Source of the DNA: a bacterium
GTDB lineage: Bacteria > Bacillota > Clostridia > Oscillospirales > CAG-272
DNA length: 64,000 nucleotides
NCBI GenBank assembly: GCA_963642885.1
Contig: CAVIJI010000004.1
Location: 22,633 to 86,632 of the forward strand
Reading direction: 5' to 3'
Both the position numbers and the translations under genes were made by a program. Positions 23,632 through 56,919 of this stretch are shown one piece after another. The notes under the pieces were generated by a model. It did no database searches. It saw nothing but the letters and a program-made list of their open reading frames with translations, and was not told the origin of the DNA. The first letter of the stretch is position 1. Each line of letters opens with the position of its first letter.

Positions 23632-23659
23632 TACATCGTTGTCGGGGAAATCCGACTAT

Positions 23660-23743
23660 GCCGGTGTGATGGAATTGGCAGACGTGCTGGACTCAAAATC
23701 CAGTGGTAGCGATACCGTACCGGTTCGACCCCGGTCACCGGCA
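23660..23743 (+). tRNA. tRNA-Leu (anticodon CAA)
   Basis: Hand-folded cloverleaf: acceptor GCCGGTG/CACCGGC, anticodon stem CTGGA/TCCAG with loop CTCAAAA, long variable arm GGTA-GCGA-TACC, T arm ACCGG-TTCGACC-CCGGT, discriminator A. CCA is not encoded. Confidence 0.93.
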
Positions 23744-23756
23744 TGATGATTTAAAG

Positions 23757-40178: not shown

Positions 40179-41645
40179 TCAACCCTGTACGTCCTTAAGC
40201 GCTTCAATCGATTCGGATGATTTCTTGTCGAATTTCTCCTGAAGGCTTTGTGTCATGGATACAAGCTGTTCCGCACCGCTCTTCTGTACACTTGACAGGT
40301 ATGAATTATATACATCCCATGAACCGTAGCACGTCGAGTAGTCGAATGTACGGTTTGCAGTTAAAATGTCAAGCATTTCGGTGGTATCTTCGTCACGTGC
40401 GATTTTACCCTTCAGTGTTGTGTCGTAATACGCTTCCGTCAGGTAAGCATCGGAGTAAATCGCCATTGCTTCGATAACATCGCCTATAACCTCGCGGTTT
40501 GCCGAGGCGGTCTGAGGTATGCACATTGCCTGCGCTGTTGCCTCCATTGAACAGGTGTAATATCCCTGATTTTCGTCACGCATCGGGAAGGGAAGTACGC
40601 CAAACGGGTTTTCCATATTATCACGGAGTTCTTCTATAGATCCGAGCTGCATAATAAAGAACAGACACATGTCTGTGTAGAAGCTGGTATAACCCCAGTT
40701 GTCGTTGTTGACGATTACAGACAGATTTTCATCGTTCAAAAGGGCTGCGACTTTCTCGGTAACTGCGATGACATCGTCGGATGCGGTGTTTAATACAAAC
40801 TTTGTTTCATCCGCGTCATCGCTGAGATATACAAGCTGTACACCGCCGCCGTCTACAAGAGACAGATATTGTCCTATGCCGGTTACCAGTCCGTACATAT
40901 CGCCTTCGTTTCGGATACCGTCACCGTTCGCATCGGAGGAGACGGCTTTCATCAGTTCGCCCATCTTGTCGAGAGTCCATTTCTGCTCACGCACAAGTGT
41001 GTACGGATTGTCCAGCGTATAACGATCTATAAGCGTCTTGTTGAAATACAGCGCGCTGCATCCTTCCATTGAGTGAATGTTTGTGTCGTTGCAGGCAAAG
41101 AACAGTCTTCCGTTGAATGTGAATGCGTCTACCGAGTTTTTATCCCACCATGCGGGTTCAAAGGATAATGCTTCGAAAGAGTTTAAATCCAATAGGTTGC
41201 CGGACTCTGCCGTAGGCAGTAAGCTGTTAATGCGCTCCCATACCTGGTCGTATTCGTCCGAACCCGAATTAACGGATTTCTTTATGTATTGCGGAGCAGC
41301 CTTCGTTTCCTCAAGTGAAAGCTTTACGTTGTAGAGTTCTTCGATAAATAATTTACGCTCGTATACCGTATCATTGATGACTTCACCGGTCATTTCTTCC
41401 GCGTCAAGGGAAATGACCCACCAGTTGGAGTTAATGTCGCCGAGCATTCTGAAAGCATAGCCGCCGTAATCTTTGCTTTGAAGTGCTTCGAGTGCGGATG
41501 TTTCCGCTTCGGTTTCACTTTCCGCAACGGTTTCGTTTGCTAAAGCGGACGAATTATCGGTTGTTTCGGCGGGGGTGTTTTCTCCGCATCCTACAGAGAA
41601 AACAAGTAATAATGCAGCGAGGATAAAGCTTAGAGTTCGTTTCAT
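40179..41645 (-). CDS. ABC transporter extracellular solute-binding lipoprotein (family 1, orphan)
   Basis: 488 aa with lipobox LLVFSVGC and an SBP-like body. No permease or ATPase gene is adjacent. Confidence 0.8.
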   Translation of the reverse strand: MKRTLSFILAALLLVFSVGCGENTPAETTDNSSALANETVAESETEAETSALEALQSKDYGGYAFRMLGDINSNWWVISLDAEEMTGEVINDTVYERKLFIEELYNVKLSLEETKAAPQYIKKSVNSGSDEYDQVWERINSLLPTAESGNLLDLNSFEALSFEPAWWDKNSVDAFTFNGRLFFACNDTNIHSMEGCSALYFNKTLIDRYTLDNPYTLVREQKWTLDKMGELMKAVSSDANGDGIRNEGDMYGLVTGIGQYLSLVDGGGVQLVYLSDDADETKFVLNTASDDVIAVTEKVAALLNDENLSVIVNNDNWGYTSFYTDMCLFFIMQLGSIEELRDNMENPFGVLPFPMRDENQGYYTCSMEATAQAMCIPQTASANREVIGDVIEAMAIYSDAYLTEAYYDTTLKGKIARDEDTTEMLDILTANRTFDYSTCYGSWDVYNSYLSSVQKSGAEQLVSMTQSLQEKFDKKSSESIEALKDVQG

Positions 41646-41942
41646 GATTCTGATTCTCCTTAAGAAATAGTGATAGAACGCTGATATAAGTTTGTTTTTC
41701 GTAAAAACAGCTTAACCGCAAATAATTGCCAATGATTTTTTTGCATGACTATGAAAAACGGTGAATAAAATTACGATCCCATTTTCTCGGTACCTCCGAT
41801 CGGAAAATTTATATCAATTCAATTCGTATTGTAACATGATAAAAATGTAATGTCAATAAAAAATTTAAATAATATAATAAAATTACAGTAATAAATATCC
41901 AATCCGAGATTGATTTATGCAAATAGTGAAATATCAAGCGGT

Positions 41943-42336
41943 AAAAAACATAGGAGCCATGCTTCATGAAATGAAGCATGGCTCGGGGAGGCGGTGTATT
42001 TGCCGACGTTTAAATTTAACATAATCCGCCGACGTAGAGTAAGGAAAAACATAGGAGCCATACTTCATGAAATGAAGCATGGCTCGGGGAGGCGGTGTAT
42101 TTGCCGACGTTTAAATTTAACATAATCCGCCGACGTAGAGTAAGGAAAAACATAGGAGCCATACTTCATGAAATGAAGCATGGCTCGGGGAGGCGGTGTA
42201 TTTGCCGACGTTTAAATTTAACATAATCCGCCGACGTAGAGTAAGGAAAAACATAGGAGCCATACTTCATGAAATGAAGCATGGCTCGGGGAGGCGGTGT
42301 ATTTGCCGACGTTTAAATTTAACATAATCCGCCGAC
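41943..42336 (-). repeat. Tandem array, 101-bp unit x ~3.9, each unit carrying a 14-bp-stem hairpin
   Basis: cataggagcc recurs at 41949, 42050, 42151 and 42252. The units are identical except for one G/A site. The array ends 1 nt from the methyltransferase stop codon. Confidence 0.95.
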
Positions 42337-42337
42337 A

Positions 42338-43156
42338 TTAGTCAAACATATCGTAATTGCGCTTTTTTCCTATTAAAATGCCGCGCATGCAATACTTTGC
42401 CACAAGAGGATCCTCGCAGGTGTCAATCTGAACCTTGACGAAATTGCGGTACTCATCCTCGCTCATCGCATCGATTTCATCTATCATGTTGTACAAAAGC
42501 GAGTATGTCGATGCAACGGTTATTATCTCGATTCCGTATTCGCGTGCTATGTCCGTCATTTCATCGAGCATCATTCCGTAGAAGTTTTCACATTTGTGGT
42601 TCTTCTCGACATCGGCAAGCTTACGGTAAGCTCTCATTTTGTCAAGAGCGTTTTCCGTACGCATGGCATTAAAATATTGGCCGAGAGTCATTGCCATAGG
42701 TGTCATGTATGTATATGCAATGTATCCGCCCGGTTTTAAGACACGCATGGATTCCTTTATTATAGTTTCACGTTCGGCTCTGGTACATGCATGATAAAGC
42801 GGACCCATGGATACTAATATATCGAAGCTTTCGGAATCGAATTTGGATAGGCTTCTCGGACTTGAACAGTATATATTTTCGAGTAGTGATGCCTTGGGGG
42901 ACGATTTGAGCAGTTCGTAATGTTCTTCGAGAAGGTCACCGGCCGTTACGGTATATCCTTTTTCTGCAAATTTAAATGCGAATGTACCTGTTCCGGCTGC
43001 TGTGTCGATAACTTTTCCCGATTCGGGTAAATACTTATCGAATAAATATTCGATAGTTTCTGTTTCTGCGGAGGTGAGTCGATCTGAATTGTGTTCTTCT
43101 CTGAACAGACCGTAATATTCAAACATGTCCATAAAATTTCTCCGTTGATTTGACAT
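42338..43156 (-). CDS. Class I SAM-dependent methyltransferase
   Basis: Motif I is VIDTAAGTGTFA. The likely true start is ATG 43132 (MDMFEYY), 8 nt after GGAG. Confidence 0.8.
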   Translation of the reverse strand: MSNQRRNFMDMFEYYGLFREEHNSDRLTSAETETIEYLFDKYLPESGKVIDTAAGTGTFAFKFAEKGYTVTAGDLLEEHYELLKSSPKASLLENIYCSSPRSLSKFDSESFDILVSMGPLYHACTRAERETIIKESMRVLKPGGYIAYTYMTPMAMTLGQYFNAMRTENALDKMRAYRKLADVEKNHKCENFYGMMLDEMTDIAREYGIEIITVASTYSLLYNMIDEIDAMSEDEYRNFVKVQIDTCEDPLVAKYCMRGILIGKKRNYDMFD

Positions 43157-43445
43157 AGTGTTGTTTTTTGTGAAAAGCAGGCATTACAAATAAAAACCAA
43201 GTGCGAACCTTCTCCAAATACATCTTAGCATAAAAATACGTAATTGTCAATAACTTTTCATGAAGATGAAAGAAAGAAACATTTTTTACTTGTATTTGTG
43301 TTACGTATATGTTATAATTAATATAGGGTGAGTTTACATATACGAGCCTTATAAAACCAAACCGAGTAATCGGATACATATGTCGATTAAAGTGATTTAT
43401 TAAAAGACGGCTGTACTCGGTATAATCGCGGAAAGGAAGTTCAAA

Positions 43446-44888
43446 TTGGAACCGAACGATAAAGAATATTTGCCGGAAGACGATGTACATTCCGAGGACG
43501 ATACTCAGTCTCATGATGAAAATCAGGATGAAACACCCGAAGCGGAAGAAACGCAAGTAAAAGAAAACGATAATGATACCGAAATAACGGAAACCACTGA
43601 TAATGATACGGCGGATGATTCCGCGGAGTCGAATTATACTACGGATGAGGACGATATTGCTTACGTAGCTGAAAGAATTACCGGAGCAAGACACAGTATG
43701 GTTACAACGGCGGCCCCTCTCAGAGTACGTACGAACAACGAAACCATGCGTATGAATTCGCTCAGCAGAATAGTAAACGAGAGCACTGAAAAAGCCGAAA
43801 CAAACAAAGAGAAAAACGAAAAAAAATCCAAACGATTTGTGCTGACTACTGCAGTCGTTGCCGTATTTGTCGCGGTAATTCTTTCGACGATCATTGTGGG
43901 TGTTAATATTGTCGCTGACAAAAATAAGCCTGCCGACATAAACATAGGTGATGTCGCAGAGGATTATATCAGCCTTGTAAACACCGAGACCGAGGTCGAA
44001 ACCGAAAAAGCCGCGGAGACGGCATGGATAAAAAACAATACCGAAACAACCGAAACACAGGAAACAAAAATCGATGAGACAGAGGTTGATACGGATGAAA
44101 CCGAGGAAGAGAGCGAGCCCGAAACACAGCCCGAGACCGAGGTGAACACTCCGGTATATAACGTTATTCTCGACTTTTACGACAGAGACGATATAGAAAT
44201 TTCAACGGAGCAGATGACGTTAAACAGTCTGTTGGAGCTGTGCGGTATCACCCTTAACGACAATGAAGTACCGTCGTTATCGCTTGACTCGGTAATTGCC
44301 GCCGATACGACAATTACTATAAACAAATACGAGTATAAATCGGAAACCGTGTCCGAAACGATTCCGTACGGTACAAAGGCAACCGAAACCGATTTTATAC
44401 CGAGAGGTGAGAAAAAATACTCACAATACGGTGAAAACGGACAGATGAACAAGTACTACACTGTTGAATATATAAACGGAAAAGAAAACTCACGTACTCT
44501 CGATTATGAGGAAACGGTTAAATATCCCGTCGATGAGGTTTACGAGGAGGGTGTCGGAGGTTCGTTTGTCGGTTCGGACGGTGTGACATACACATATTCA
44601 TACAGAAGGGTAGTTCCTGCGACATATTACAATATAGAAGGACTTACATATCTCGGTACAATGGCGGATGAGAGTGTCATTGCCGTTGACATGGACAATA
44701 TCCCGCTCGGAACACGTCTGTATGTGAAAAACGATACATATGATTTCGGTGTCAGAATAGCATCCGACATAGGCGGTGCGGTTGACGATTGGGAAATAGA
44801 TATTTGGCTCTCAAGCAGCAATCCGCAGTTTGCTTCGTTTTCTCAGGTCGGATACATATATGATATGGAGATATACTATATTGACTGA
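43446..44888 (+). CDS. Cell-wall-associated G5 + 3D domain protein (YabE/RpfB-like) with acidic N-terminal region
   Basis: 480 aa from a TTG start after AAGGAAG. It has one TM (FVLTTAVVAVFVAVILSTIIVGV), a G5-like segment (ETIPYGT...YTVEYINGKE) and a C-terminal 3D-like segment (GTRLYV...DIGGAV...IDIW). Confidence 0.65.
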   Translation: MEPNDKEYLPEDDVHSEDDTQSHDENQDETPEAEETQVKENDNDTEITETTDNDTADDSAESNYTTDEDDIAYVAERITGARHSMVTTAAPLRVRTNNETMRMNSLSRIVNESTEKAETNKEKNEKKSKRFVLTTAVVAVFVAVILSTIIVGVNIVADKNKPADINIGDVAEDYISLVNTETEVETEKAAETAWIKNNTETTETQETKIDETEVDTDETEEESEPETQPETEVNTPVYNVILDFYDRDDIEISTEQMTLNSLLELCGITLNDNEVPSLSLDSVIAADTTITINKYEYKSETVSETIPYGTKATETDFIPRGEKKYSQYGENGQMNKYYTVEYINGKENSRTLDYEETVKYPVDEVYEEGVGGSFVGSDGVTYTYSYRRVVPATYYNIEGLTYLGTMADESVIAVDMDNIPLGTRLYVKNDTYDFGVRIASDIGGAVDDWEIDIWLSSSNPQFASFSQVGYIYDMEIYYID

Positions 44889-44904
44889 ATAAAGGAGATT
44901 TGTT

Positions 44905-46041
44905 ATGGATTTTACGCCGCTTCGTAAATATCAGGATTACCTGACAAGCTGGAGAATTCCGGGAAACGATTGCATGGTTGTCAAAGACGGAAAAGAAATA
45001 TACCGTTATATGTCAGGCTATGCGGATTGTGAAAAAGGAAGAAAAATGTCAGGCGATGAGCTTTACTATTTCTGGTCGGCATCGAAGGTGATAACCTGTT
45101 CTCTCGCACTTAAGCTTCATGAGGAAGGCAAGTATGTGATGAACGATCGCCTGTCCGATTATATGCCCGAATTTTCCGAAATGATGATAAGCAAGGTCAT
45201 CGACGGAAAGGAAGAACTTGTAAAGGCCGAAAAGCCGATTCTTATCAAGCATCTGTTCAATATGACCGCAGGCTTCGATTATAATTTCTCGACACCGTAT
45301 GTTGACGAAGTTAAAAAGAAAACAAACGGATTGTGTCCTACGAGAGAGGTAGCTGCGGCTATCGCAAAAAATCCGCTTCGTTTCGAACCCGGTGAGCACT
45401 GGAATTACAGCCTGTGTCACGATGTTCTCGGTGCGTTCATAGAGGTAGTTTCGGGAAAAAAGCTGCGTGATTACGCAAAAGAGGTTTTATTCGACCCTCT
45501 CGGAATGACGGATACCACGTACAATATGCCGTCCGCCGACAAGATAAGCAGATTCGCTATACAGTACAGCTACAGAGATGACCTTAACAAATACCTGCCG
45601 ACGAACAATACTTGCGGACACTTTTTGGGAAGTGAATACGATTCGGGCGGCGCCGGAATCGTTTCAAGCTGTGCGGATTATATGAAGTTCGCATCTACCT
45701 TGGCAAACGGCGGTACATCATCAAACGGATACAGATACCTTTCTCCCGCGACAATTGAGCTTATGAGTACCAATACCCTCGGAGAAACACAGATGAAAGA
45801 CTACGGTTGGGGACATCTTATAGGCTACGGTTACGGATACGGTGTCAGAACCATGATTGACAAAGCTGTCTCGGGTTCGCTTTCGCCTATAGGTGAATTC
45901 GGCTGGGGCGGTGCAGCGGGTGTTTGGGTAATAATCGATCCGAAAAACAATCTTTCGCTTGTTTATACCCAGCATATGCTGAATAATCAGGAAAACATCA
46001 ATGCTCCGAGACTCAGAAACGTTCTTTATTCCTGTTTGTAA
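44905..46041 (+). CDS. Serine hydrolase, class C beta-lactamase/PBP family
   Basis: 378 aa with SxxK = SASK and a YSL motif. An SD AAAGGAG lies upstream. Confidence 0.85.
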   Translation: MDFTPLRKYQDYLTSWRIPGNDCMVVKDGKEIYRYMSGYADCEKGRKMSGDELYYFWSASKVITCSLALKLHEEGKYVMNDRLSDYMPEFSEMMISKVIDGKEELVKAEKPILIKHLFNMTAGFDYNFSTPYVDEVKKKTNGLCPTREVAAAIAKNPLRFEPGEHWNYSLCHDVLGAFIEVVSGKKLRDYAKEVLFDPLGMTDTTYNMPSADKISRFAIQYSYRDDLNKYLPTNNTCGHFLGSEYDSGGAGIVSSCADYMKFASTLANGGTSSNGYRYLSPATIELMSTNTLGETQMKDYGWGHLIGYGYGYGVRTMIDKAVSGSLSPIGEFGWGGAAGVWVIIDPKNNLSLVYTQHMLNNQENINAPRLRNVLYSCL

Positions 46042-46196
46042 AATTACGCAGCTACAATAGTAGTTGTATTGTTGATAATGTGTAAACAATGCCGAATCAG
46101 ATGCGACAAAAACGCGAATATTGTTGCAAAACGACGAACAATGTGGTAACATTAATGATAGTGTACAAATTCTTGATCGAAAGAAAGGAAAATGTT

Positions 46197-47699
46197 ATGA
46201 AAAGATTTTTATCTCTTATTTTAGCTGCACTTATCCTTTCCGCTTCATTCACGGCATGTTCGGAAACAACAACAAATGAGAATGATGAGAGCGCGGAAAC
46301 GGAAACGGCTCAATCGGCATCCGAGACGGTAGTGGAAACGGAAGAGGAAACCGAAAAGTATCTTGACGATCTTCCCGAGACAATGGATTTCGGCGGAGAA
46401 ACCGTAAGCTTTTACGTAGAGGACGACGCATCAAACGGATTGGGTGAGCTGTCTATTCTTGCGGAAGAGGATACAGGCGACGTTGTCGATTCTGCCGTAG
46501 TACAGAGAAACAACACCATAACCGAGAGATTGAATATCAACTTGGCTATAACCGAGGTTGTAGGCGGTAACAGTATCAGCTCTGCCCTCAAGACCGGAGT
46601 AGCAGCGGGCGGATGCGACTTTGATATAATGAGCGTATACCAGTACTACGGAGTCGGTACCGCGGCATCGGGCAATGTGTATAACATCGCAAACCTTCCC
46701 TATGTGGACTTCAGCCGCGAATACTGGGGCACAGATTATATCGATAACTTGTCGTACAAGGGCGCGATTTATTGGGCAACAGGCGACATAGCTCTGAAGT
46801 ATATAGGCGGTGCATACTGTACGTATGTTAACGACACAGTATGGAACAACAATTATCCCGACCAGAACGTATACGACATTGTTAACGAAGGTCAATGGAC
46901 TCTTGACAAGTTTACCGAGTTTGCCGAAAAAGTATATTCCGATGCAAACGGTAACGGAGAGAAGGATGTAGATGATATATACGGATTCAACATCTGCTAC
47001 GAAGACCCGGTTGACGGTATGGCTGCAGCTTGCGGAGTAGAATATTCCAAGAAGGACGAAAACGGAGTTCCGGTTATCACTATTGAGAGCGAACACACGA
47101 TAAATGTTTATGATAAGCTTTATAAACTTATCGGTGCAAATCCCAATGTTTACGTAAGTGCCAGCGATGGCGGCGGACAGCAGATGATGAAGCTGTTTGC
47201 AACAGGCAATGCAATGCTTGCCGTAAACAAGCTTTTCCAGGCAGCTGCTTTCTTGCGTGATATGGAAGACACATACAAAATCGTTCCCGCTCCGAAGTAT
47301 GATGAGAACCAGGAATACTATATGACAATGCTTCACGACAGTGTAAACTGCTATGGTATACCTGTTACAAACACGAAATACGAGCTTATGGGTGCAACTC
47401 TCGAAGCTATGGCTTCTGAAAGCTATAAGGTTGTTTCTCCCGCTTACTACGAAAAAGCACTTAAATTCAAGTACGTTCGTGACTCCGAGTCAGGTCAGAT
47501 GATCGAGCTTATTCGTGAGCATGTAACAGCTGACTTTGCAGCACTTTACTCAAACAGCATTTCGAATATTGTACACTTCTTCAGACAACAGCTTGATGCG
47601 GGTACAGAGAACATTACTTCCGTATTCGCAAAGAAGGAAAAGGTTTGGAACAAGGCACTCGAAAAGCTGCTCACCGGACTTGAGGAGAGCGCGGGCTAA
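46197..47699 (+). CDS. ABC transporter extracellular solute-binding lipoprotein (family 1, orphan)
   Basis: The start is placed at ATG 46197 (MKRFLSLILAALILSASFTAC lipobox). It is a paralog of the 40179..41645 protein. No permease gene is adjacent. Confidence 0.8.
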   Translation: MKRFLSLILAALILSASFTACSETTTNENDESAETETAQSASETVVETEEETEKYLDDLPETMDFGGETVSFYVEDDASNGLGELSILAEEDTGDVVDSAVVQRNNTITERLNINLAITEVVGGNSISSALKTGVAAGGCDFDIMSVYQYYGVGTAASGNVYNIANLPYVDFSREYWGTDYIDNLSYKGAIYWATGDIALKYIGGAYCTYVNDTVWNNNYPDQNVYDIVNEGQWTLDKFTEFAEKVYSDANGNGEKDVDDIYGFNICYEDPVDGMAAACGVEYSKKDENGVPVITIESEHTINVYDKLYKLIGANPNVYVSASDGGGQQMMKLFATGNAMLAVNKLFQAAAFLRDMEDTYKIVPAPKYDENQEYYMTMLHDSVNCYGIPVTNTKYELMGATLEAMASESYKVVSPAYYEKALKFKYVRDSESGQMIELIREHVTADFAALYSNSISNIVHFFRQQLDAGTENITSVFAKKEKVWNKALEKLLTGLEESAG

Positions 47700-47700
47700 T

Positions 47701-47847
47701 GAATGGGGATACACCTCATCTTAAGGGTTGAGAAATCCACCCCATTCCCGAGAATTTCCGTAAACGGAAATTCTCCGAAGTGAGGCTTATATGTACGTGG
47801 GATATACCTCATCTTAGGGGTTGAGTAATCCACCCCATTCCCGAATT
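47701..47847 (+). repeat. Mosaic structured repeat: module A - hairpin B - module A
   Basis: Module A1 is GAATGGGG-N31-CCCCATTC (47701-47747). Hairpin B is gagaatttccg-taaa-cggaaattctc (47750-47775). Module A2 is a 5'-truncated copy (47797-47840). Confidence 0.85.
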
Positions 47848-47856
47848 TTAAACAGT

Positions 47857-47904
47857 AAAAAAGGATGTATCCCGAGCGAGTATGCTCGGAGATACATCCT
47901 TTTT
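47857..47904. terminator. Bidirectional terminator
   Basis: aaaaaggatgtatc[ccgagc-gagtat-gctcgg]agatacatccttttt, a nested stem flanked by A/T runs. Confidence 0.75.
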
Positions 47905-47923
47905 ATGTGGGTCCGCAAAATAC

Positions 47924-48241
47924 TTATTTGTTTTTCTTGTCTTCTGCTTCTTTTTTCTTGTCGTAGCCGCGGTTGATGATGTAGATAACAATGTTGATGG
48001 ATACGACGATGAGGTTGAAGAAGTAAACCACCAAAACATAGGGAGCCACGTGTCCACCTATGCTCAATTTTACGAATTTAGCAATGATGCCGCAGATGTA
48101 ACCGGTAATTATGAGAAGAATGAAGGGAAGACTCATAGCTTTTGCGGATTTTGCTTTATAGTTTTTGATAACCGAAAGAGGCCATGAAGCTCCGAAGCAA
48201 ATGAGCATGCAAGCTTCAAGTACTGATGAAAGTGTCTCCAT
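47924..48241 (-). CDS. Small 3-TM membrane protein, PQ-loop/SemiSWEET-like
   Basis: 105 aa with three hydrophobic helices. SWPLSVIKNYKAKSAKAMSLPF resembles a PQ-loop motif with Q replaced by L. Confidence 0.4.
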   Translation of the reverse strand: METLSSVLEACMLICFGASWPLSVIKNYKAKSAKAMSLPFILLIITGYICGIIAKFVKLSIGGHVAPYVLVVYFFNLIVVSINIVIYIINRGYDKKKEAEDKKNK

Positions 48242-48284
48242 GATAAGTCATCTCCGAAAGAATGTTATTTGAAAATTTCCAAAA

Positions 48285-48320
48285 AAAAGCGGTTCGCGGA
48301 GTAAATCCGAAACCGCTTTT
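48285..48320 (-). terminator. Terminator after rplA
   Basis: aaaagcggtt...aaccgctttt, with a long T-run on the minus strand. Confidence 0.7.
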
Positions 48321-48332
48321 AGTATACATTTA

Positions 48333-49025
48333 TTAGCCGAGCTTAGCGGTATTTACCTTAATGCCGGGGCCCATTGTGGAAGCAACAACACAGCTCTTGA
48401 TATACTGGCCTTTAGCTGCAGCGGGACGAGCCTTAACAACAGCGCCAACGAGAGTGTTAAAGTTTTCAGCGAGCTTTTCGGCACCGAAGGAAGCCTTACC
48501 GATGGGGCAGTGAATGATGTTGGTCTTGTCGAGACGGTACTCGATCTTACCTGCTTTAGCTTCGTTAACAGCCTTAGCAACATCCATTGTAACTGTACCT
48601 GCTTTGGGGTTCGGCATGAGTCCCTTAGGACCGAGTACACGACCGAGACGACCGATAGTACCCATCATGTCGGGAGTAGCGATAACTACGTCGAAATCGA
48701 ACCAGTTTTCTTTCTGAATCTTTTCAACGAGATCCATATCGCCTACATATTCCGCGCCTGCTTCTTTAGCGGCTGTAGCCTTGTCGCCCTTTGCGAAAAC
48801 AAGAACGCGAACCTTTTTACCTGTACCGTGAGGAAGAACGATAGCACCGCGAACCTGCTGATCGGCGTGACGTGAGTCAACACCCAGACGAAGGTGAACT
48901 TCGATTGTTTCGTCGAACTTAGCCTTAGATGTCTGGCAAACAAGGTTCATTGCTTCTGCGCTGTCGTAGAGCTTGGATTTTTCGAGCAGCTTCTGGCTGT
49001 CTACGTACTTTTTACCTTTAAACAT
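48333..49025 (-). CDS. rplA: 50S ribosomal protein L1
   Basis: 230 aa with a typical L1 sequence ([12 protein letters not shown]...GPRGLMPNPK-like). Confidence 0.96.
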
Positions 49026-49039
49026 TATTATAGCCCTCC

Positions 49040-49465
49040 TCAGTCTTCAACGGTAACACCCATGGAACGGGCAGTACCTGCGATCATGCTCATAGCCGCT
49101 TCGATGGAACCTGCGTTGAGGTCCTTCATCTTTGTTTCGGCGATCTGGCGAACCTGATCCTTTGTTATCTTAGCAACCTTTGTCTTGTTCGGAACGGGAG
49201 AAGCTGTTTCGATACCGCATGCCTTCTTGATAAGAACGGGAGCCGGCGGGGTCTTTGTAATAAATGTGAAAGAACGGTCAGCGTAGATAGTGATAACTAC
49301 GGGGATGATGAGACCGATATCGTTCTTTGTACGTTCGTTGAACTCTTTAACAAAGTTCATACCGTTAACACCGTAAGGGCCGAGTGCAGGACCTACAGGC
49401 GGCTGCATTGTGGCTTTACCGGCGTTGAGCTGAAGCTTTACATAGCCAACTATTTTCTTTGCCAT
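49040..49465 (-). CDS. rplK: 50S ribosomal protein L11
   Basis: 141 aa with [29 protein letters not shown]. Confidence 0.96.
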
Positions 49466-49610
49466 TGCAAATAATCCTCCATATGTGGTTTATGACGGGA
49501 GACTGAATAGTATTTTCTCCCTCCCACTTTATTTGCCGTTTTATCGGAAAACGACGAACCTTTTTGCGCTCAACTGCACGCTTTTAATGCGGCATACGAG
49601 CGTGGCGGAG

Positions 49611-50162
49611 TTATTCCTTAGCCTTTTCGACATATTTCTTGTCGAGCTTAACCGGAATATCTCTTCCGACGGTGGACACGATTACCGTAGCCTCACCGGT
49701 TTCCTCATTATATTCGGACAGCGTGCCCGTATAGCCGCGGAATACTCCGTCGATTATATTGACACTGTCGCCTACGGTATACGCAAGATGTTCGGTAGGC
49801 GATGCATCCTCTTTAATGATGGCTGCGGCTTCTTCTTCGGTGAGCGGAACCGGTTTGGAGCCCGGTCCGACAAATCCCGTGACGCCGCGGATATTTCTGA
49901 CAATATGCCAGGTTTCGTCGGTCATGACCATTTTAACAAGAACGTATGCGGGGAATATTTTCGATTCCACCTCATGCGGTGCTTTGTTTCCGTCGGTTTC
50001 TATGATTGTTTCCGTCGGAATTCTAATATCTGTGATAAGATCTCCGAGACCTCTGTTCTCGACTATCTTTTCAAGATTGGCTTTGACTTTGTTTTCGTAG
50101 CCCGAATAAGTATGCGCAACATACCAACGCAGACCTTCGTTCATCTCATTAATATCGCTCAT
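49611..50162 (-). CDS. nusG: Transcription termination/antitermination factor NusG
   Basis: 183 aa with WYVAHTYSGYENKV and a KOW region GDSVNIIDGVFRGYTGTL. Confidence 0.95.
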   Translation of the reverse strand: MSDINEMNEGLRWYVAHTYSGYENKVKANLEKIVENRGLGDLITDIRIPTETIIETDGNKAPHEVESKIFPAYVLVKMVMTDETWHIVRNIRGVTGFVGPGSKPVPLTEEEAAAIIKEDASPTEHLAYTVGDSVNIIDGVFRGYTGTLSEYNEETGEATVIVSTVGRDIPVKLDKKYVEKAKE

Positions 50163-50220
50163 AAAATCATTATCCTCCCTGACTCAGGTTTGCGGGGAAT
50201 GACATCGATGCTTCGACTTC

Positions 50221-50493
50221 TCAGAACAGAAGGCTGAGACCGTTAATTGCCTGTGAGAAACAGTAGTCAAGTATTGCGAGAGCTGCGGAGAAAATAACTA
50301 CACACACAATCACAACTATGCTGTTGGAGCGTACGCTCTTCCAGCTTGCCCAGTTGATTTTTTTGCATTCGGATTTAACGGATTTAAACCAAGCTTTGAT
50401 GCGCTCCCAGGTCGACGGCTTGTCCGATTTTGCTTTCTCGGGCTTCTGTGCGTCGTTCTTTTTTACCTCGGTATTTTTTTCGTTTTCAGCCAT
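50221..50493 (-). CDS. secE: Preprotein translocase subunit SecE
   Basis: 90 aa with a Lys-rich N-terminal extension, then SECKKINWASWKSV and a single TM. Confidence 0.85.
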   Translation of the reverse strand: MAENEKNTEVKKNDAQKPEKAKSDKPSTWERIKAWFKSVKSECKKINWASWKSVRSNSIVVIVCVVIFSAALAILDYCFSQAINGLSLLF

Positions 50494-50513
50494 ATCAAAT
50501 ACTCCTTAAGTGG

Positions 50514-50663
50514 TTACTTGGTTTCTCTGTGAAGAGTGTGCTTGCGGCAGAAACGGCAGTACTTTTTGAGTTCAAGTCTGTCAGGGTCGTTCTTCTTGTT
50601 TTTCTTTGTGTCGTAATTACGCTGTTTGCATTCACTGCAAGCAAGAGTGATCTTAACTCTCAT
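50514..50663 (-). CDS. rpmG: 50S ribosomal protein L33
   Basis: Not in the ORF track because it is 49 aa. Hand translation gives [49 protein letters not shown]. An SD AAGGAGG lies upstream. Confidence 0.93.
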
Positions 50664-50801
50664 TCTATCGGCACCTCCTTGAAAATTTTGACCGGGATAA
50701 CTCGGCCAGATAATGTACCTCCCTCGCCGGGGGCAGTCGATGCGTGCGTCATGACCGTGTTACACGCATACGAAAAAAGACCCTCTGCACGAGGTAAATA
50801 C

Positions 50802-50830
50802 ATTATACCATTTTTTTGCTAAACCGTCAA
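50802..50830 (-). promoter_or_regulatory. Promoter of the rpmG-secE-nusG unit
   Basis: Minus strand reads TTGACG-17 nt-TATAAT, leaving a leader of about 140 nt. Confidence 0.55.
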
Positions 50831-50918
50831 TATTTTTTTCGAGATATTCGGAAAGATTAATGTCAAAAAATATTACTATCAGAAGAAAAAAACTGTATAA
50901 AAACTTTATATTATCTTA

Positions 50919-50947
50919 TTTACAATCAAGAACGATTATGCTATAAT
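50919..50947 (+). promoter_or_regulatory. Promoter of rpsO
   Basis: TTTACA-17 nt-TATAAT, leaving a leader of about 115 nt. Confidence 0.55.
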
Positions 50948-51069
50948 ATATTTTGGATTGCCCATGTCACGGTTTTCGGATTAATGGTTGCGTCAGCGAC
51001 ATTTTCACCCGCCGAATGCTGAGACTCGGGAATCACAAAAAACATTTAAGGTGAAAGGAAAACACAGCC

Positions 51070-51336
51070 ATGATGACAAAGGAAAAGAAGCAGGAAATTA
51101 TCGACGCTTATAAGATTCACGAAGGTGACACAGGTTCTCCCGAAGTACAGATCGCTATTCTCACAAGCAGAATAGAAACTCTCACAGAGCATCTTAAGAC
51201 CAACAAGAAGGACCACCACAGCCGCCGCGGACTTAACAAGATGGTCGGACACAGACGTAACCTTCTCGGTTACCTCAAGGATAACGATATCGAAAGATAC
51301 CGTGCCATCGTTGAAAAGCTCGGTCTCAGAAGATAA
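51070..51336 (+). CDS. rpsO: 30S ribosomal protein S15
   Basis: 88 aa with [30 protein letters not shown]. Confidence 0.96.
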
Positions 51337-51674
51337 GTTCCGCCCTCCCGTAAATAAGTCAACATCGACTGACGGCATTGTATTCCAGTGCCCGTAACAA
51401 ATGTGAATAAGCTGTCTGCGGCGCGGATGAGATATTCTTACGCCGCAGTACGGTTTTATTTACGATATTTTGCTGTCGTACCGTGTCGGCAATTAAATAA
51501 TTGTCGAAAGAGAAATACTTTCGGCCGTTCTTTAAGTGCTGAAACGTACGGCGGTAACATTGAATAAGACTACACCGGGTAAGCAACATACCGCTTTGTT
51601 TTGCGGTGCGGTCTTATCGTTAACAATTTACGCATTACAAAAGTATTAAAGTATTTCAGAAAGGCTCAAGACAA

Positions 51675-53771
51675 ATGTTTGAGAATTATAAAACCTTTTC
51701 CTATGACTTTGCCGGACGTCCTCTGGTTATAGAGACGGGTAAAATGGCAGGTCTCGCAAACGGTTCTGTACTTGTGAGATACGGGGATACCGCCGTTCTT
51801 TGCTGTGCTACGGCTTCCGAGAGACCTCGCGACGGTATTGATTTTCTTCCGTTATCCATCGATTTCGAAGAGAGACTTTACGCTGTAGGCAGAATTCCCG
51901 GTTCTTATCTCAAGAGAGAAGGAAGACCGAGCGAAAAAGCCATCCTCACATCGAGAGTTATCGACAGACCTATACGTCCTCTTTTCCCGAAGGACCTCAG
52001 AAACGATGTAGTGCTTTCACTTCTCGTACTTGCGGTTGACCATGACGCTTCACCCGAAATTGCCGCAATGGTAGGTGCGTCCATAGCTTTGTCTATTTCC
52101 GATATTCCGTGGAACGGACCTATCGGCGGAGTTTTTGTCGGCCTGACAGAAGAAGAAGGGCTGATTATCAATCCCACGGCCGAGCAGAGAGAACGTTCTT
52201 CACTCGAACTTACCGTAGCGGGTACAAAGAAAAAAGTCGTTATGATCGAAGCAGGTGCCGCGGAAGTTTCGGATGACAAGATGTTTGAAGCAATCATGCT
52301 CGCTCATGAGGAAATCAAGAAGCTTTGTGCGTTTATCGAGGATATTCAGAGCCAGATCGGTAAGCCGAAGTTCGAGTATCCGTCCGCTGAAGTTCCGCAG
52401 GATTTGTTTGATTCCGTATATGCGTTCTGCGCGGAAGACGTAAAGGTTGCTCTCGACACGGACGACAAGAATGTTCGTGACGCGAGAATGGCACCGATTT
52501 ACGATGCGGTATACACAGAATTCGATAAAGAAAACTCCGAAGAATACCGCAAGGTACTCGACGAGGTTCTCTATAAGGTACAGAAGAAGATTGTAAGACG
52601 TTGGCTTCTTGACGAACAGAAGCGTGTCGACGGCAGAAGAATGGATCAGATTCGTCCTCTTGCAGCCGAGGTACATCTCTTCAACCGTGACCACGGTTCG
52701 GGTATGTTTACCCGTGGCCAGACGCAGGTATTGACAGTTGCGACTCTCGGTTCTATCTCCGATGTACAGATGCTCGACGGTATATCCGAAGAGGAAACAA
52801 AGCGTTACATGCACCATTACAATATGCCCGGTTATTCCACAGGTGAAGCAAAGGCAGTAAGAAGTCCCGGCAGACGTGAAATCGGACACGGTGCTCTTGC
52901 GGAGCGTTCGCTTGTTCCGGTGCTTCCTTCCGTCGAGGAATTCCCGTATGCGATTCGCTGCGTATCGGAAGTAATAAGCTCGAACGGATCGACATCACAG
53001 GCATCCGTGTGCGGTTCCACACTTGCGCTTATGGATGCGGGTGTGCCGATTAAAGCTCCCGTAGCGGGTATTTCCTGCGGACTTATTACCGAGGGTGACA
53101 GATGGATGACCATGGTTGATATTCAAGGTCTCGAAGACTTCTACGGAGACATGGATTTCAAGGTTGCGGGTACACATAAGGGTATTACATCCATTCAGAT
53201 GGACCTTAAGATAGACGGTCTTACTCCCGAGATAATCAAGGAAGCTCTTGCTGTTACTCACAAGGGACGTGACTATATCATTGATGAAGTAATTCTCAAG
53301 GCTATTCCCGCGCCCAGAGCCGAGGTTTCCGAGTACGCTCCCAAGATGATTACCATGAAGATTCCCGTTGACAAGATTGCGGAAGTTATCGGTAAACAGG
53401 GAAGTGTTATCAAGCAGATTGTTGCCGATACCGGAGCAAAGGTTGATATAGAGGAAGACGGTTCCGTATTTATTTCCGGAATCGAGAAGTCATCTCTTGA
53501 TGCTGCCAAGGCAATGATAGATGCGATAATATTCGAGCCTGTTGTCGGCGACATATATGAAGGTGTAGTAACGAGAATCATACCGATTGGTGCGTTCGTT
53601 GAGTTTGCTCCCAAGAAGGAGGGAATGGTTCACATTTCCAAGCTCGACAAAAAGCGTACCGAAAAGGTAGAGGATGTATGCAATATCGGCGACAAGATTA
53701 AGGTTAAGTTCCTCGGTGTCGACGAAAAGGGAAGATTCAATCTTTCGAGAAAAGATGCTTTGGATGACTGA
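51675..53771 (+). CDS. pnp: Polyribonucleotide nucleotidyltransferase (PNPase)
   Basis: 698 aa with two RNase PH domains, KH (GKQGSVIKQI) and S1 (GDIYEGVVTRIIPIGAFVEF). Confidence 0.96.
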   Translation: MFENYKTFSYDFAGRPLVIETGKMAGLANGSVLVRYGDTAVLCCATASERPRDGIDFLPLSIDFEERLYAVGRIPGSYLKREGRPSEKAILTSRVIDRPIRPLFPKDLRNDVVLSLLVLAVDHDASPEIAAMVGASIALSISDIPWNGPIGGVFVGLTEEEGLIINPTAEQRERSSLELTVAGTKKKVVMIEAGAAEVSDDKMFEAIMLAHEEIKKLCAFIEDIQSQIGKPKFEYPSAEVPQDLFDSVYAFCAEDVKVALDTDDKNVRDARMAPIYDAVYTEFDKENSEEYRKVLDEVLYKVQKKIVRRWLLDEQKRVDGRRMDQIRPLAAEVHLFNRDHGSGMFTRGQTQVLTVATLGSISDVQMLDGISEEETKRYMHHYNMPGYSTGEAKAVRSPGRREIGHGALAERSLVPVLPSVEEFPYAIRCVSEVISSNGSTSQASVCGSTLALMDAGVPIKAPVAGISCGLITEGDRWMTMVDIQGLEDFYGDMDFKVAGTHKGITSIQMDLKIDGLTPEIIKEALAVTHKGRDYIIDEVILKAIPAPRAEVSEYAPKMITMKIPVDKIAEVIGKQGSVIKQIVADTGAKVDIEEDGSVFISGIEKSSLDAAKAMIDAIIFEPVVGDIYEGVVTRIIPIGAFVEFAPKKEGMVHISKLDKKRTEKVEDVCNIGDKIKVKFLGVDEKGRFNLSRKDALDD

Positions 53772-53816
53772 GCGGGGATACTCTAAAGCTGAATAGTTAA
53801 GGAAACCACCCCGCTC
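53770..53816 (+). repeat. Solo repeat module A (stem-N31-stem) overlapping the pnp stop codon
   Basis: GAGCGGGG-N31-CCCCGCTC. The 5' arm starts inside the TGA at 53769-53771. Confidence 0.8.
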
Positions 53817-53818
53817 TC

Positions 53819-53864
53819 GAGCTTGCACGTTTGCCTACGGCAAACGTGCAAGCTCCTTTATTTT
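53819..53864 (+). terminator. pnp rho-independent terminator
   Basis: gagcttgcacgtttgcc-tac-ggcaaacgtgcaagctc is a perfect 17-bp stem followed by ctttatttt. Confidence 0.85.
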
Positions 53865-53875
53865 GGCTTAGATTT

Positions 53876-53922
53876 GAGCGGGGATACTCCGAAGCTGAAT
53901 AGCAGAGAAAACCACCCCGCTC
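53876..53922 (+). repeat. Solo repeat module A, second copy
   Basis: GAGCGGGG-N31-CCCCGCTC. The loop is about 70% identical to the copy at 53770. Confidence 0.8.
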
Positions 53923-53928
53923 CCGTGT

Positions 53929-54440
53929 CGGCGGAATCAGTTCGGTTTTGAGGTGGAGCAATAAACCGCCTCCATGAGAATTTTCTCAAAGAAAATTCTC
54001 CGATGTACTGCTTAGGTTTAAGCGGCGGAATCAGTTCGGTTTTGAGGTGGAGCAATAAACCGCCTCCATGAGAATTTTCTCAAAGAAAATTCTCCGATGT
54101 ACTGCTTAGGTTTAAGCGGCGGAATCAGTTCGGTTTTGAGGTGGAGCAATAAACCGCCTCCATGAGAATTTTCTCAAAGAAAATTCTCCGATGTACTGCT
54201 TAGGTTTAAGCGGCGGAATCAGTTCGGTTTTGAGGTGGAGCAATAAACCGCCTCCATGAGAATTTTCTCAAAGAAAATTCTCCGATGTACTGCTTAGGTT
54301 TAAGCGGCGGAATCAGTTCGGTTTTGAGGTGGAGCAATAAACCGCCTCCATGAGAATTTTCTCAAAGAAAATTCTCCGAGGTACTGCTTAGGTTTAAGCG
54401 GTGGATTCAGTTCGGTTTTGAGGTGGAGCAATAGAACGCC
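53929..54440 (+). repeat. Tandem array, 94-bp unit x ~5.4, two hairpins per unit
   Basis: gcggaatcag recurs at 53931, 54025, 54119, 54213 and 54307, with a degenerate copy at 54401. Each unit contains gagaattttc-tcaaa-gaaaattctc. Confidence 0.95.
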
Positions 54441-54457
54441 CACGGTATGGTAATTGA

Positions 54458-54493
54458 ATAAATAAAACCCGACGGACTTTAATCTGTCGGGTT
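54458..54493 (-). terminator. glnN terminator
   Basis: The minus strand has aacccgac-N12-gtcgggtt followed by ttatttatt, 22 nt after the stop. Confidence 0.7.
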
Positions 54494-54514
54494 CTGTTTT
54501 TATGAGAGCGGATA

Positions 54515-56614
54515 TTATGAAATACCGAACAGGAGCTTTGAGTAAGTGGGGTATCTCCAGTACTTCATATCGGTTATGCTTTCGGCTTCGTCGCATGCTT
54601 CGCGCAGCTTCTCCATAGTGACGATAATCTTTCCTTTAACCGCGAATGATGCTTCCGTCATATCGGAAATTTCATCGACCGTTTTTACTTCACTGTCAAG
54701 CTTTTCGGTAAGTGATGCAATAGACGAAGAGAGGACTGAGAGCTTTTCGACGAGCTTTTGCTCATAATCTGTGGAAATTGAAGGAGAAAGAGTACGCTTC
54801 ATCACGCCGGTTTCGCTGATTGCTTTCGTATATTCGCTGACAGCGGGAAGTATTTGCTTGTAAATCATGTCAATCATAACATTGGCTTCGATTTTGATGG
54901 TTTTAACATAATTTTCAAGCATTATTTCATATCTCGAGCGCATTTCCGTCTCGGTATAGACATGGTGTGTTTTAAACAGCTCTATATTCTTCTCGGTGAG
55001 GTACATTGTGAGAGCTTCGGGTGTCGAACGAAGGTTAAGCAGACCGCGCACGTCGGTTGCCTCTTCTATCCACTCATTATCGTAACCGTTGCCGTTGAAT
55101 ATGATTCTCTTGTGCTTTTTAATTGTATCTCTGATTAAATTATTGAGTTCTTCCTGGAAGTTGTCGGATGCTTCGAGGATGTCGGCGAACTGTCTCAATG
55201 ATTCAGCTACCGCTGTGTTGAGTACCGTGTTGCAGTCTGCGATAGAGCTTGAAGAACCTACCATACGGAATTCGAATTTATTTCCCGTGAACGCGAACGG
55301 CGAGGTGCGGTTTCTGTCCGTTGTGTCCTTCGGAAGCTTGGGAAGAATAACCGTTCCGAGATGAAGTCTTGAGGTTTCTTTCGGGTCGTAGTGTTTATCG
55401 GATTCAAGCGCATTCAATATATCCGTGAGTTCATCTCCGAGGAATATAGATATAACGGCGGGAGGCGCTTCGTTTGCACCGAGACGATGGTCGTTTCCCG
55501 CTGTAGCGGCACTGATTCTAAGTAATGCCTGATATTCGTCAACGGCTTTGATAACGGCACAGAGGAAAAGAAGAAATTGAGCATTATCATGCGGCGTATC
55601 ACCCGGGGTAAGAAGATTTACGCCTGTATTGGTACCTATAGACCAGTTATTGTGTTTGCCGGAGCCGTTTACACCGTTAAACGGTTTTTCGTGGAGAAGA
55701 CAAACGAGGCCATGACGCTTTGCTACCTTTTTCATGATTTCCATTGTAAGCTGGTTGTGGTCGGTAGCTATATTGGCTTGCGTGAATATAGGAGCGAGCT
55801 CGTGCTGTGCGGGAGCGGCTTCGTTGTGTTCGGTTTTTGCAAAAATACCGAGCTTCCACAATTCCACATCAAGCTCTCTCATGAAAGCTTCCACTTTAGG
55901 TTTAATAACTCCGAAATAATGGTCGTCAAGCTCCTGACCCTTGAGTGAGCGCGCTCCGAAAAGAGTTCTGCCGGTGAAGATAAGGTCCTCGCGCTTGTTG
56001 TACATTTCTTCGGGAACGAGGAAGTATTCCTGCTCGGGGCCTACACTTGTTCTGACACATGTGACATCGGTATTGGGGTCGAAAAGCTTCAGAATACGGA
56101 GCGATTGCTTGTTTATCGCTTCCATTGAGCGTAAGAGAGGGGTTTTTGTGTCAAGAGCTTCACCACCGTATGAACAGAACGCGGTGGGAATACATAATGT
56201 GTCGTCTTTGATGAAGGCATATGATGTGGGGTCCCATGCCGTATAGCCTCTTGCTTCGAATGTGGCTCTTAAGCCGCCCGAGGGGAACGATGATGCATCA
56301 GGCTCACCTCGTACAAGTTCTTTACCGGAGAATTCCATTATTACCTTACCGTCACCGATCGGCGAAATAAAGCTGTCGTGTTTTTCGGCGGTAAAGCCGG
56401 TTAAAGGCTGAAACCAATGCGTATAGTGAGTGCAGCCATGTTCCACAGCCCAGTCCTTCATTGCGTTTGCTACAATATTAGCCACACCGAGATCAAGCTG
56501 TCTGTTTTCGTCGATTGTTTTTTTAAGAGACTTATACGTTTCCTTCGGAAGTCTTTCCTTCATGGTTGTGTCATCAAAGGAAAGACAGCCGAAATATTCG
56601 CTGACTGTAGACAT
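54515..56614 (-). CDS. glnN: Glutamine synthetase type III
   Basis: 699 aa with a typical GSIII N-terminus ([26 protein letters not shown]) and length. Confidence 0.9.
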
Positions 56615-56919
56615 CGGATAAACTCCTTTAAATATAATTAAGAATCAAGAAAAAAAGACAATGACAGCAATGGTGAAACCCGCGAATGTCTTTGTCGTTA
56701 CAATTAAATTATACTCATGTTTTAATACACTGTCAAGCTTTTTTCGAGAATGAAAAACGAATCGTAGGAATGCACAACTAAGTATTCCATTTTGAAAATC
56801 GGTTGTGAAAAATGAGAATATAATAATGTTGTGAACGAATTCGGAGGTGTTTTTTTGGGAGAACGGTAAAAAATTATATTGCACGATGTACAGAAAACAA
56901 AAAAATATAAAAATAATGT

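Follow-up and report, generated by a model that had tools for sequence, protein, structure and literature searches.

A 64-kb stretch of contig CAVIJI010000004.1 (hereafter the window), from an uncultured member of the Clostridia, carries a family of structured intergenic repeats that lie at the stop codons of three genes, encoding a methyltransferase, a protein referred to here as hyp500, and pnp. An earlier note on this DNA had described one repeat family in three guises, comprising two tandem arrays and a few solo modules. Here we use D1 for the stem-N31-stem part of the repeat and D2 for the GAG...CTC hairpin; a complete unit of about 94-150 nt consists of D1, D2 and a linker of about 20 nt. 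With the covariance model R1, which was built on 16 distinct aligned D1 sequences, 14 D1 copies were detected at the three loci and none in the rest of the 64 kb. Most of them have a long perfect D2 hairpin and a linker on the 3' side. The general architecture is (D1-D2-linker)n-D1', in which all arrays run head-to-tail and the 3' ends are ragged, the last D1 being decayed or truncated. The surroundings of all three loci are ordinary chromosome.

Three repeat loci in the window

The first locus is a tandem array on the minus strand, recognised by Tandem Repeats Finder with a period of 101, 3.9 copies and 99% matches at 41944-42336. Its four units of D1, D2 and linker (41944-42337) lie between the methyltransferase open reading frame (ORF; 42338-43156, minus) and a promoter-like site at 41856-41828 that belongs to the next gene (40179-41645, minus), and the array starts at the base after the TAA stop codon (42338-42340). 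The D1 of the first unit, TGTC-GGCGG-N31-CCGCC-TCC, was located by R1 at 42289-42337 and the remaining ones at 42188-42236, 42087-42135 and 41986-42034, with scores of 52.7-54.2 bits. The first D2 (42257-42287) is a 14-bp hairpin followed by CTATGTTTTT and is terminator-like; the remaining D2 copies occupy 42156-42186, 42055-42085 and 41954-41984, and three of the four contain a G-U pair on the sense strand.

The second locus, on the plus strand, follows the hyp500 ORF (46197-47699), which has no Pfam match. A solo-type D1, TGAATGGGG-N31-CCCCATTC, occupies 47700-47748 (R1, 56.9 bits) and begins at the base after the TAA stop codon (47697-47699). It is followed by the D2 hairpin GAGAATTTCCG-TAAA-CGGAAATTCTC without a U-run (47750-47775), which is present as the earlier note had described it and recurs in identical form in a contig of a sister species (L093, see below). 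The linker CGAAGTGAGGCTTATATG... at 47776-47793 is akin to the array linkers (..GCTTAGGTTT..), and a terminal D1 with a decayed 5' arm closes the locus (47794-47841, 34.2 bits). Downstream of this D1, an ordinary terminator at about 47857-47905 faces the convergent rplA-rplK-nusG-secE operon.

The third locus lies behind pnp on the plus strand. The D1 at 53769-53817, TGAGCGGGG-N31-CCCCGCTC (56.7 bits), has the TGA stop codon of pnp (53769-53771) as its first three bases, and the adjoining D2 (53819-53855), a 17-bp hairpin GAGCTTGCACGTTTGCC-TAC-GGCAAACGTGCAAGCTC followed by the U-run CTTTATTTTG, is terminator-like and probably the pnp terminator. A second solo D1 of the same form, TGAGCGGGG-N31-CCCCGCTC (53875-53923, 57.3 bits), has no D2 of its own and leads directly into the second tandem array, for which a period of 94, 5.4 copies and 98% matches were reported at 53929-54440. 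This array (53926-54444) comprises five full units and a degenerate terminal D1 (54396-54444); its D1 copies start at 53926, 54020, 54114, 54208, 54302 and 54396, and its D2, GAGAATTTTC-TCAAA-GAAAATTCTC without a U-run, lies at 53976-54000 and then every 94 bp. The old 3' region ends at an ordinary hairpin terminator that does not belong to the repeat family (54466-54503); beyond it, seen from the array, lies the convergent glutamine synthetase III gene (54515-56614, minus). The downstream gene is convergent at two of the three loci; at the third it is the co-directional 488-aa gene behind the 101-bp array, which has no Pfam match.

In the direction of the upstream gene, the units of both arrays have the layout CGGCGGA-N29-ACCGCCTCC-NN-GAG[hairpin]CTC-C(G/T)ATGT, on the minus strand for the 101-bp array and on the plus strand for the 94-bp array, as had been claimed. 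Linkers are interrelated across loci as well (..GCTTAGGTTTAAG, ..GCTTAGATTTGAG and ..GGCTTATATGTACG). The solo modules noted earlier at 47701, 53770 and 53876 are real, and a fourth D1 outside the arrays, at 47794-47841, had not been listed; these four copies are those starting at 47700, 47794, 53769 and 53875. The description of the pnp locus as solos plus an array likewise stands, with the amendments that the solo at 53769 has its own D2 and U-run and that the last array unit is a degenerate D1. The solo D1 pattern gave four matches in the window and none in 100 shuffles, and the pattern GGCGGA-N29-ACCGCC gave 22 matches against 3.0 expected from shuffled sequence. A search of the window for further fragments of the family returned nothing beyond one chance 15-mer in a coding region (22024-22038). 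No sense-strand ORF persists through the arrays, and neither unit length (94 or 101 nt) is divisible by 3.

Two other features of the window were recorded. Upstream of the 488-aa gene, TTGACA-17-TACAAT (41856-41828) comes close to a consensus promoter and precedes a 5' leader of about 180 nt (41646-41830, minus). In the sister species (L149, about 7018-7200) this promoter is conserved together with the first part of the leader (..ACGAATTGAA..GATATAAA..GGAGGTACCGA..). The sequence has no Rfam match and could be a leader or regulatory RNA. A 29-nt direct repeat of 83% identity, GCTTTTTTCGAG.AT.A.AAACG..TCGT, occurs at 21965-21993 and 56737-56765, one copy within an ORF and the other in the intergenic DNA ahead of the glutamine synthetase III gene. 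It has no relation to the D1/D2 family and may be due to chance.

Structure and covariation of D1 and D2

The D1 copies of the window are domains of 47-49 nt, and for the comparison with other repeats D1 is put at 41-47 nt. Its outer stem, rich in G+C, has 5-8 bp and surrounds about 31 nt that are themselves structured. The GGCGG/CCGCC stem encloses 31 nt in both arrays, and the same number is found inside GAATGGGG/CCCCATTC (47701) and GAGCGGGG/CCCCGCTC (53770 and 53876). The enclosure of exactly 31 nt, proposed from the window alone, holds for both arrays and the solo stems there but is not universal, in that GGGG and CCCC are 32 nt apart in the orthologous D1 of the sister species, or the stem encloses 30 nt when one extra U-A pair is counted. 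Five stem versions were found across both species, namely GGCGG/CCGCC, GAGCGGGG/CCCCGCTC, GAATGGGG/CCCCATTC, GAGTGGGA/TCCCACTC and GGCGGG/CCCGTC, the last two being additions from the sister species. Both-sided changes occur at four of the five core pairs of the outer stem; column pair 5/45, for example, is GC, CG or UA, and pair 7/43 is CG or GC. The covariation score of 0.317 was reached by none of 500 column shuffles, which do not correct for relatedness, and it fell to about 0.06-0.12 when the 3' partner was slid by 1-3 columns. The result was unchanged with 30 distinct rows. The compensatory stem changes suggested by the earlier note are therefore borne out by the two further stem versions and by the larger alignment. 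In addition, the folding z-scores of the units range from -2.1 to -7.8 relative to shuffled sequence. An alternative 7-bp pairing, GAGGUGG/CCGCCUC, which RNAfold prefers in the 94-bp unit at 53935-53975, was rejected, as other copies do not retain it.

The three guises are one family, joined by the D1 geometry, the unpaired bases, the GAG...CTC hairpin and the linker, and a single model, R1, scores the copies of the family at 34-64 bits and unrelated pattern matches at no more than 21 bits. Within D1, several unpaired positions are kept across stem versions, including GGAU at the 5' junction and AG..A.A..ACC before the 3' arm, and so is the 9-nt loop of the inner hairpin, which is close to G-Y-U-K-A-A-U-A-G. 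In the inner 5-bp helix, formed by loop positions 6-10 and 20-24, G-U pairs exceed A-C mismatches by 16 to 7. These features are what would be expected if D1, with or without D2, were a structured RNA with a function of its own, either a protein- or ribosome-binding element of the 3' untranslated region (UTR) or a source of 3'-UTR-derived small RNAs. In the latter variant the C-rich 3' side (CCGCCUCCCC, CCACCCCGCUCC) would pair with Shine-Dalgarno sequences and D2 would serve as the terminator, and the order of hairpin and terminator is indeed that of many small RNAs. The conservation of GGAU, the loop and AG..A.A..ACC across subfamilies despite changed stems, the near-fixed stem geometry of about 31 nt and the retention of the family at three orthologous sites (see below) speak in the same direction. 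However, no promoter-like site was found inside the units, no Rfam family matches, the inner helix is weak, and the interiors of orthologous methyltransferase D1 copies differ at about 12 of 31 positions. The near-identity of units within an array is the usual sign of concerted evolution, not of selection acting copy by copy. Moreover, because only two sister species carry the family, the conservation of the loop may partly mirror recent common descent, which might also account for the conservation as a whole. A separate RNA function for D1 is on balance distinctly unlikely.

D2 is a long perfect hairpin with GAG at its start and CTC at its end. Its stems are 10-17 bp long, and at least seven stem sequences were found, every one perfectly paired. 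Some D2 copies, often in the sister species, form a three-way junction made up of GAGTTTATCC, a hairpin, TTGCC-N3-4-GGCAA and ACGGATAAACTC. The pnp D2 ortholog of the sister species is such a junction with the same TTGCC..GGCAAACG core, and the pnp D2 of the window retains the TTGCCTACGGCAAACG core of the sister-species junction. The D2 of pnp and each of the four D2 copies in the 101-bp array have a G+C-containing hairpin with a U-rich tract within 2 nt, and a terminator scan calls all of them, in the sense strand only. A U-run also follows D2 in L092, L093b, L107 and L149-pnp. Since many D2 copies are followed by a U-run, D2 can be read as an intrinsic (Rho-independent) terminator, and D2 plus U-run fits the consensus of such terminators at pnp, in the 101-bp array and in several sister-species copies. 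In contrast to ordinary intrinsic terminators, D2 is iterated here and coupled to D1, and the U-run is absent in some copies.

Distribution and unit number in two sister species

The species of the window was recovered by exact-protein look-up in GCA_963620065.1 (contigs L130 and L147), GCA_963645495.1 (L148) and the Logan assembly of SRR13434646 (L131), with DNA 99.2-100% identical to the window; L131 is identical across the solo copies and the start of the 94-bp array. The look-up of the methyltransferase gave no match, probably an effect of contig breaks at the array. Among 185,579 species-representative genomes, a pattern scan returned four contigs of the metagenome-assembled genome (MAG) CAZWLL01 and a 2.2-kb contig from the same co-assembly. 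CAZWLL01 represents a sister species, whose proteins are 74-98% identical to those of the window, and on its contig L149 the family follows the stop codons of the methyltransferase, hyp500 and pnp genes, that is, all three orthologous sites. CAZWLL01 has the family at five or more gene ends besides these; the additional sites lie after yajC, a lipoate-protein ligase gene and a DUF1292 gene, at the end of a barstar gene, and in two contig-end arrays. The further copies beyond the window that the earlier note had called for are present in both species, R1 detecting about 20 of them in L092, L093, L100, L101, L107, L130, L147 and L149. Contig L093 is binned as Prevotella, though it comes from the CAZWLL01 co-assembly, and is probably misbinned.

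With R1, the family was found in two closely related uncultured gut or rumen Clostridia only, a result to be read with the fact that R1 was trained on the same two species and may let distant relatives escape. The collection scans used exact degenerate patterns, which copies with other stems may escape. The nearest pnp homologues belong to 'Ruminococcus sp.' and Oscillospiraceae MAGs. R1 gave no match in 735 kb of pnp loci from 80 related genomes, and blastn-short of the units against these 80 loci gave none either; in 800 kb around homologues of the beta-lactamase-like gene from 50 genomes, only L149 matched. Taken together, about 1.5 Mb of DNA from roughly 130 more distant relatives is free of the family. 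More distant relatives have plain terminators directly after the pnp and methyltransferase stop codons. A resemblance seen by eye between the 3' region after the 94-bp array and L012 gave a weak alignment and was not relied on. The first genome scan, with a GGGG-type pattern, gave 11 matches, all by chance; a metagenome scan gave 22 pattern matches, all in high-GC coding DNA and at most 19 bits with R1, and a viral scan gave 15, all at most 21 bits. No match to the pnp-locus repeats was found by BLAST in plasmid and phage collections. With Rfam 15 at gathering thresholds, only a tRNA passes in the whole window, and the only tRNA found there by ARAGORN is tRNA-Leu (23659-23744). Relaxing the E-value to 10 over 41600-54700, or to 1 over the repeat regions of L092, L093, L100, L101, L107 and L149, gave nothing credible, in line with the earlier statement that no named family was recognised.

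Unit number differs between strains and species. The 47700 locus has one unit in the window, two in strain L130 (99.2-99.7% identical) and at least three in L149, and the order of D1 variants after pnp differs between strains. Units inside one array are near-identical and orthologous arrays are divergent, which indicates concerted evolution. The family was present at the three gene ends in the common ancestor of both species; since then the arrays have gained and lost units, while both hairpins have been kept by compensatory changes. Gain and loss probably occurred via recombination or slippage between units. The unit number, varying as it does among strains, provides possible strain markers.

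The arrays also break short-read assemblies, with contig ends or N-runs exactly at the arrays. Runs of about 100 N lie inside sister-species arrays (L149:12850-12960 and L101:166-265), the contigs L130, L131 and L147 end at or inside arrays, and L148 stops about 100 bp before the 101-bp array is reached. Contig L147 of GCA_963620065.1, which is 2282 bp long and carries the glutamine synthetase III gene, likewise breaks off 53 nt ahead of the gene start; at the corresponding window positions 56615-56667 there is no D1 and no obvious repeat. The breaks and N-runs at the repeat loci, together with the 98-99% identity of units within each array, might suggest that the loci are unrelated local minisatellites, expanded from the terminator of each gene, or assembly artefacts, and that no family exists. 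This proposal is extremely unlikely and is counted as already refuted: one covariance model recovers all loci in two species, the same arrays occur in the independent assemblies L130 and L147 (GCA_963620065.1) and L131 (SRR13434646), and D1, D2 and linker are common to loci beside unrelated genes.

Stop-codon anchoring and the nature of the family

The position of the first unit relative to the upstream gene is nearly fixed. At five of six first units, namely those of the window methyltransferase, window hyp500, L092 yajC, L100 lplA and L093 DUF1292, the first position of the 49-nt model is the base immediately past the stop codon, and at pnp it falls on the stop codon itself (TGA-GCGGGG). Measured as the start of D1, the distance is -2 to +4 nt from the stop codon at six loci, and D1 overlaps the ORF end at a seventh. 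The barstar-family ORF L101:7201-7494 (PF01337) lacks a stop codon ahead of D1 and continues into it (..ELDVGGYTSA) until the contig ends; judging from this sequence, the 3' end of the gene appears to have been replaced by the repeat, which would then provide the stop codon. Internal units often have TAA or TGA at the same offset (TGA-CGTC-GGCGG, TAA-GCGGGG, TGA-GCGGGG), so the stop triplet looks like part of the unit. The units are in sense orientation at seven of eight loci with a known upstream gene, and in the window they share the direction of the upstream gene on either strand over a distance of 12 kb; GC skew is not inverted from one locus to the next. A 7-nt duplication, TGAATGG TGAATGG, was seen at the junction of stop codon and first D1 in the hyp500 locus of the sister species (L149:12803-12816). 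The idea that D1 provides back-up stops in all three frames is true for the pnp copy and not for the methyltransferase copy, and was dropped. A selenocysteine insertion sequence (SECIS) or read-through signal was rejected too, as pnp ends where its homologues end.

Element-borne stop triplets are also what would be seen if the family were a mobile element at the DNA level, similar to repetitive extragenic palindromes (REPs) or MITEs, with single-stranded DNA hairpins recognised by a transposase such as RAYT or an IS200/IS605-type HUH enzyme. Such an element would insert beside a short target coinciding with stop codons, and RNA effects would be secondary. In CGTC-tagged REPs, CGTC is the head motif and TGTC a common variant (PMC3733652), and CGTC or TGTC stands directly before GGCGG-type D1 in at least seven copies, a101, L092a, L093a, L100a, L100b and L107a among them. 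Mobility would further suit the single antisense copy, the different combinations of D1 and D2 subtypes among loci, and the presence of the family in two species and its absence from relatives, as expected of a selfish-element burst. On the other hand, the head motif is absent from the a94 units and from all GGGG-type copies, the array 3' ends are ragged, and the arrays are head-to-tail instead of the inverted pairs typical of REP/BIME or REPINs. Pfam scans of a few neighbouring ORFs showed no transposase near any copy, RAYT (Y1 transposase) included. Because the sister species has the repeat at the orthologue of every window locus, none of these documents a recent insertion; and since orientation tracks the upstream gene without GC-skew inversion, insertion tied to the replication strand does not fit. 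Transposition as the primary nature of the family is therefore considered unlikely, although credible.

Several known repeat systems resemble the family, and the comparison with BOX and BIME drawn in the earlier note works well as an analogy. REPs are found at distances below 20 bp from the 3' ends of ORFs, whose stop codon they can provide (PMC3733652), and the present repeats are likewise non-coding hairpin repeats just past ORF 3' ends that sometimes give the stop codon, agreeing with REPs in their 3' extragenic location near stop codons. Ribosome stalling and reduced translation have been reported for REPs that lie no more than 15 nt from a stop codon (Liang, Rudd and Deutscher 2015, as cited in PMC12306157). 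REP/BIME stems vary by compensatory change as well, and the repeats are thought to be transcribed, with roles in termination, mRNA stabilisation and, at 15 nt or less, ribosome stalling. REPs, however, are 20-40 nt long with 8-9 bp stems and 4-5 nt loops, whereas D1 is larger, with about 31 nt of structured sequence inside its stem, and is joined to a second long hairpin. Most REP clusters consist of inverted pairs; the arrays here are strictly head-to-tail, and the hosts of CGTC- and GTAG-tagged REPs are Proteobacteria, not a Clostridia lineage. As for the REP head tag, the GGCGG subtype here has CGTC or TGTC in part of its copies, the a94 units lacking it, and the GGGG subtype has none. Based on the larger D1 with its structured interior, the head-to-tail arrays and the untagged subtype, the family is not a REP by definition.

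BOX elements, organised as boxA-(boxB)n-boxC (PMC3049150), are also modular structured intergenic repeats of Firmicutes with one module in variable number, restricted to one species and its closest relative; BOX, RUP and SPRITE are confined to S. pneumoniae and S. mitis (PMC3049150), and BOX has been reported from S. pneumoniae, S. mitis and S. suis only. They are co-transcribed with neighbouring genes and transpose slowly if at all, a further probable likeness. BOX differs in its three distinct modules with defined A and C ends, whereas a two-hairpin unit with a decayed D1 end is iterated here; it lacks stop-codon anchoring, and its host is Streptococcus, not an Oscillospiraceae-like member of the Clostridia. 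No sequence relationship to BOX is known or was found, and the two are set apart by architecture and host, not by a comparison of consensus sequences. The MIRU, or variable-number tandem repeat (VNTR), loci of Mycobacterium are reportedly (Supply et al. 1997) head-to-tail intergenic units of 40-100 bp in strain-variable number; their ends are said to abut or overlap the upstream stop codon, and their small ORFs to couple translation between operon genes. Tandem intergenic units of strain-variable number are found here at the 47700 locus. MIRUs, however, are not hairpin-defined and carry small ORFs, whereas the present units have two hairpins and lengths of 94 and 101 nt that are not multiples of 3. 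The family is neither BOX nor MIRU; it is a new, genus-restricted member of the REP/BOX-like class of structured intergenic repeats. Type III antitoxin arrays, CRISPR and integron attC sites were rejected on the grounds that the units are 94-150 nt long without unique spacers and that the flanks are housekeeping genes syntenic in relatives without the repeat; Type III antitoxin arrays consist of shorter repeats, of about 34-45 nt, with a toxin gene behind them. A riboswitch or attenuator for the downstream gene was rejected likewise, as the genes downstream of two of the three loci are convergent and no alternative pairing links D1 with D2.

The best explanation, to which we assign a probability of about 0.6, is that the family consists of lineage-restricted, non-coding, hairpin-forming interspersed repeats of the REP/BIME, BOX or MIRU kind that form a transcribed 3'-end module. 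Judged from sequence, the family most likely acts as a terminator and 3'-end module. The first unit is fused to the stop codon of an ordinary gene, sometimes supplying that codon, and the units would be transcribed as the 3' end of the upstream mRNA. D2 copies would end transcription, and D2 with D1 would shield the 3' end from exonucleases. D1, which the terminating ribosome would run up against, may influence termination or the fate of the mRNA; since it starts at -2 to +4 nt of the stop codon, it may slow terminating ribosomes, as E. coli REPs no more than 15 nt away do. Four points go beyond the earlier note, namely stop-codon anchoring, the terminator character of D2, confinement to two sister species and unit numbers that differ between strains.

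Several observations weigh against the 3'-end module. No U-run follows D2 in the 94-bp array or at the 47700 locus, and these D2 copies are not canonical terminators for this reason. The methyltransferase locus of the sister species has D1 without D2. The sole antisense copy, on the minus strand of L093 at about 1600-1720, lies behind a YgjV-like gene (1010-1588, plus); its truncated terminal D1 ends 5 nt from the stop codon of that gene, and its D2 is the one identical to window 47750-47775. The inner D1 helix is paired in 67-72% of cases. Finally, the conserved unpaired bases and the D1 loop are not explained by a plain terminator or stabiliser role. In a further proposal, D1 would be a stop-codon-anchored, cis-acting RNA device, a hairpin whose sequence-specific loops have to lie in the mRNA channel of the terminating ribosome, and the family would spread by targeting sense-strand stop codons. 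To our knowledge, no bacterial repeat has a spread mechanism that targets sense-strand stop codons. This proposal appears quite unlikely; if true, it would couple translation termination to ribosome rescue, mRNA decay or downstream transcription termination.

The family is a well-defined structured repeat family from uncultured gut or rumen Clostridia, in which such elements have hardly been catalogued. With its start registered on the stop codon at almost all loci and its retention at three orthologous gene ends despite compensated stems, it offers a natural test case for whether stop-adjacent hairpins regulate termination, ribosome stalling and mRNA stability in Firmicutes, as has been proposed for the REPs of E. 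coli.

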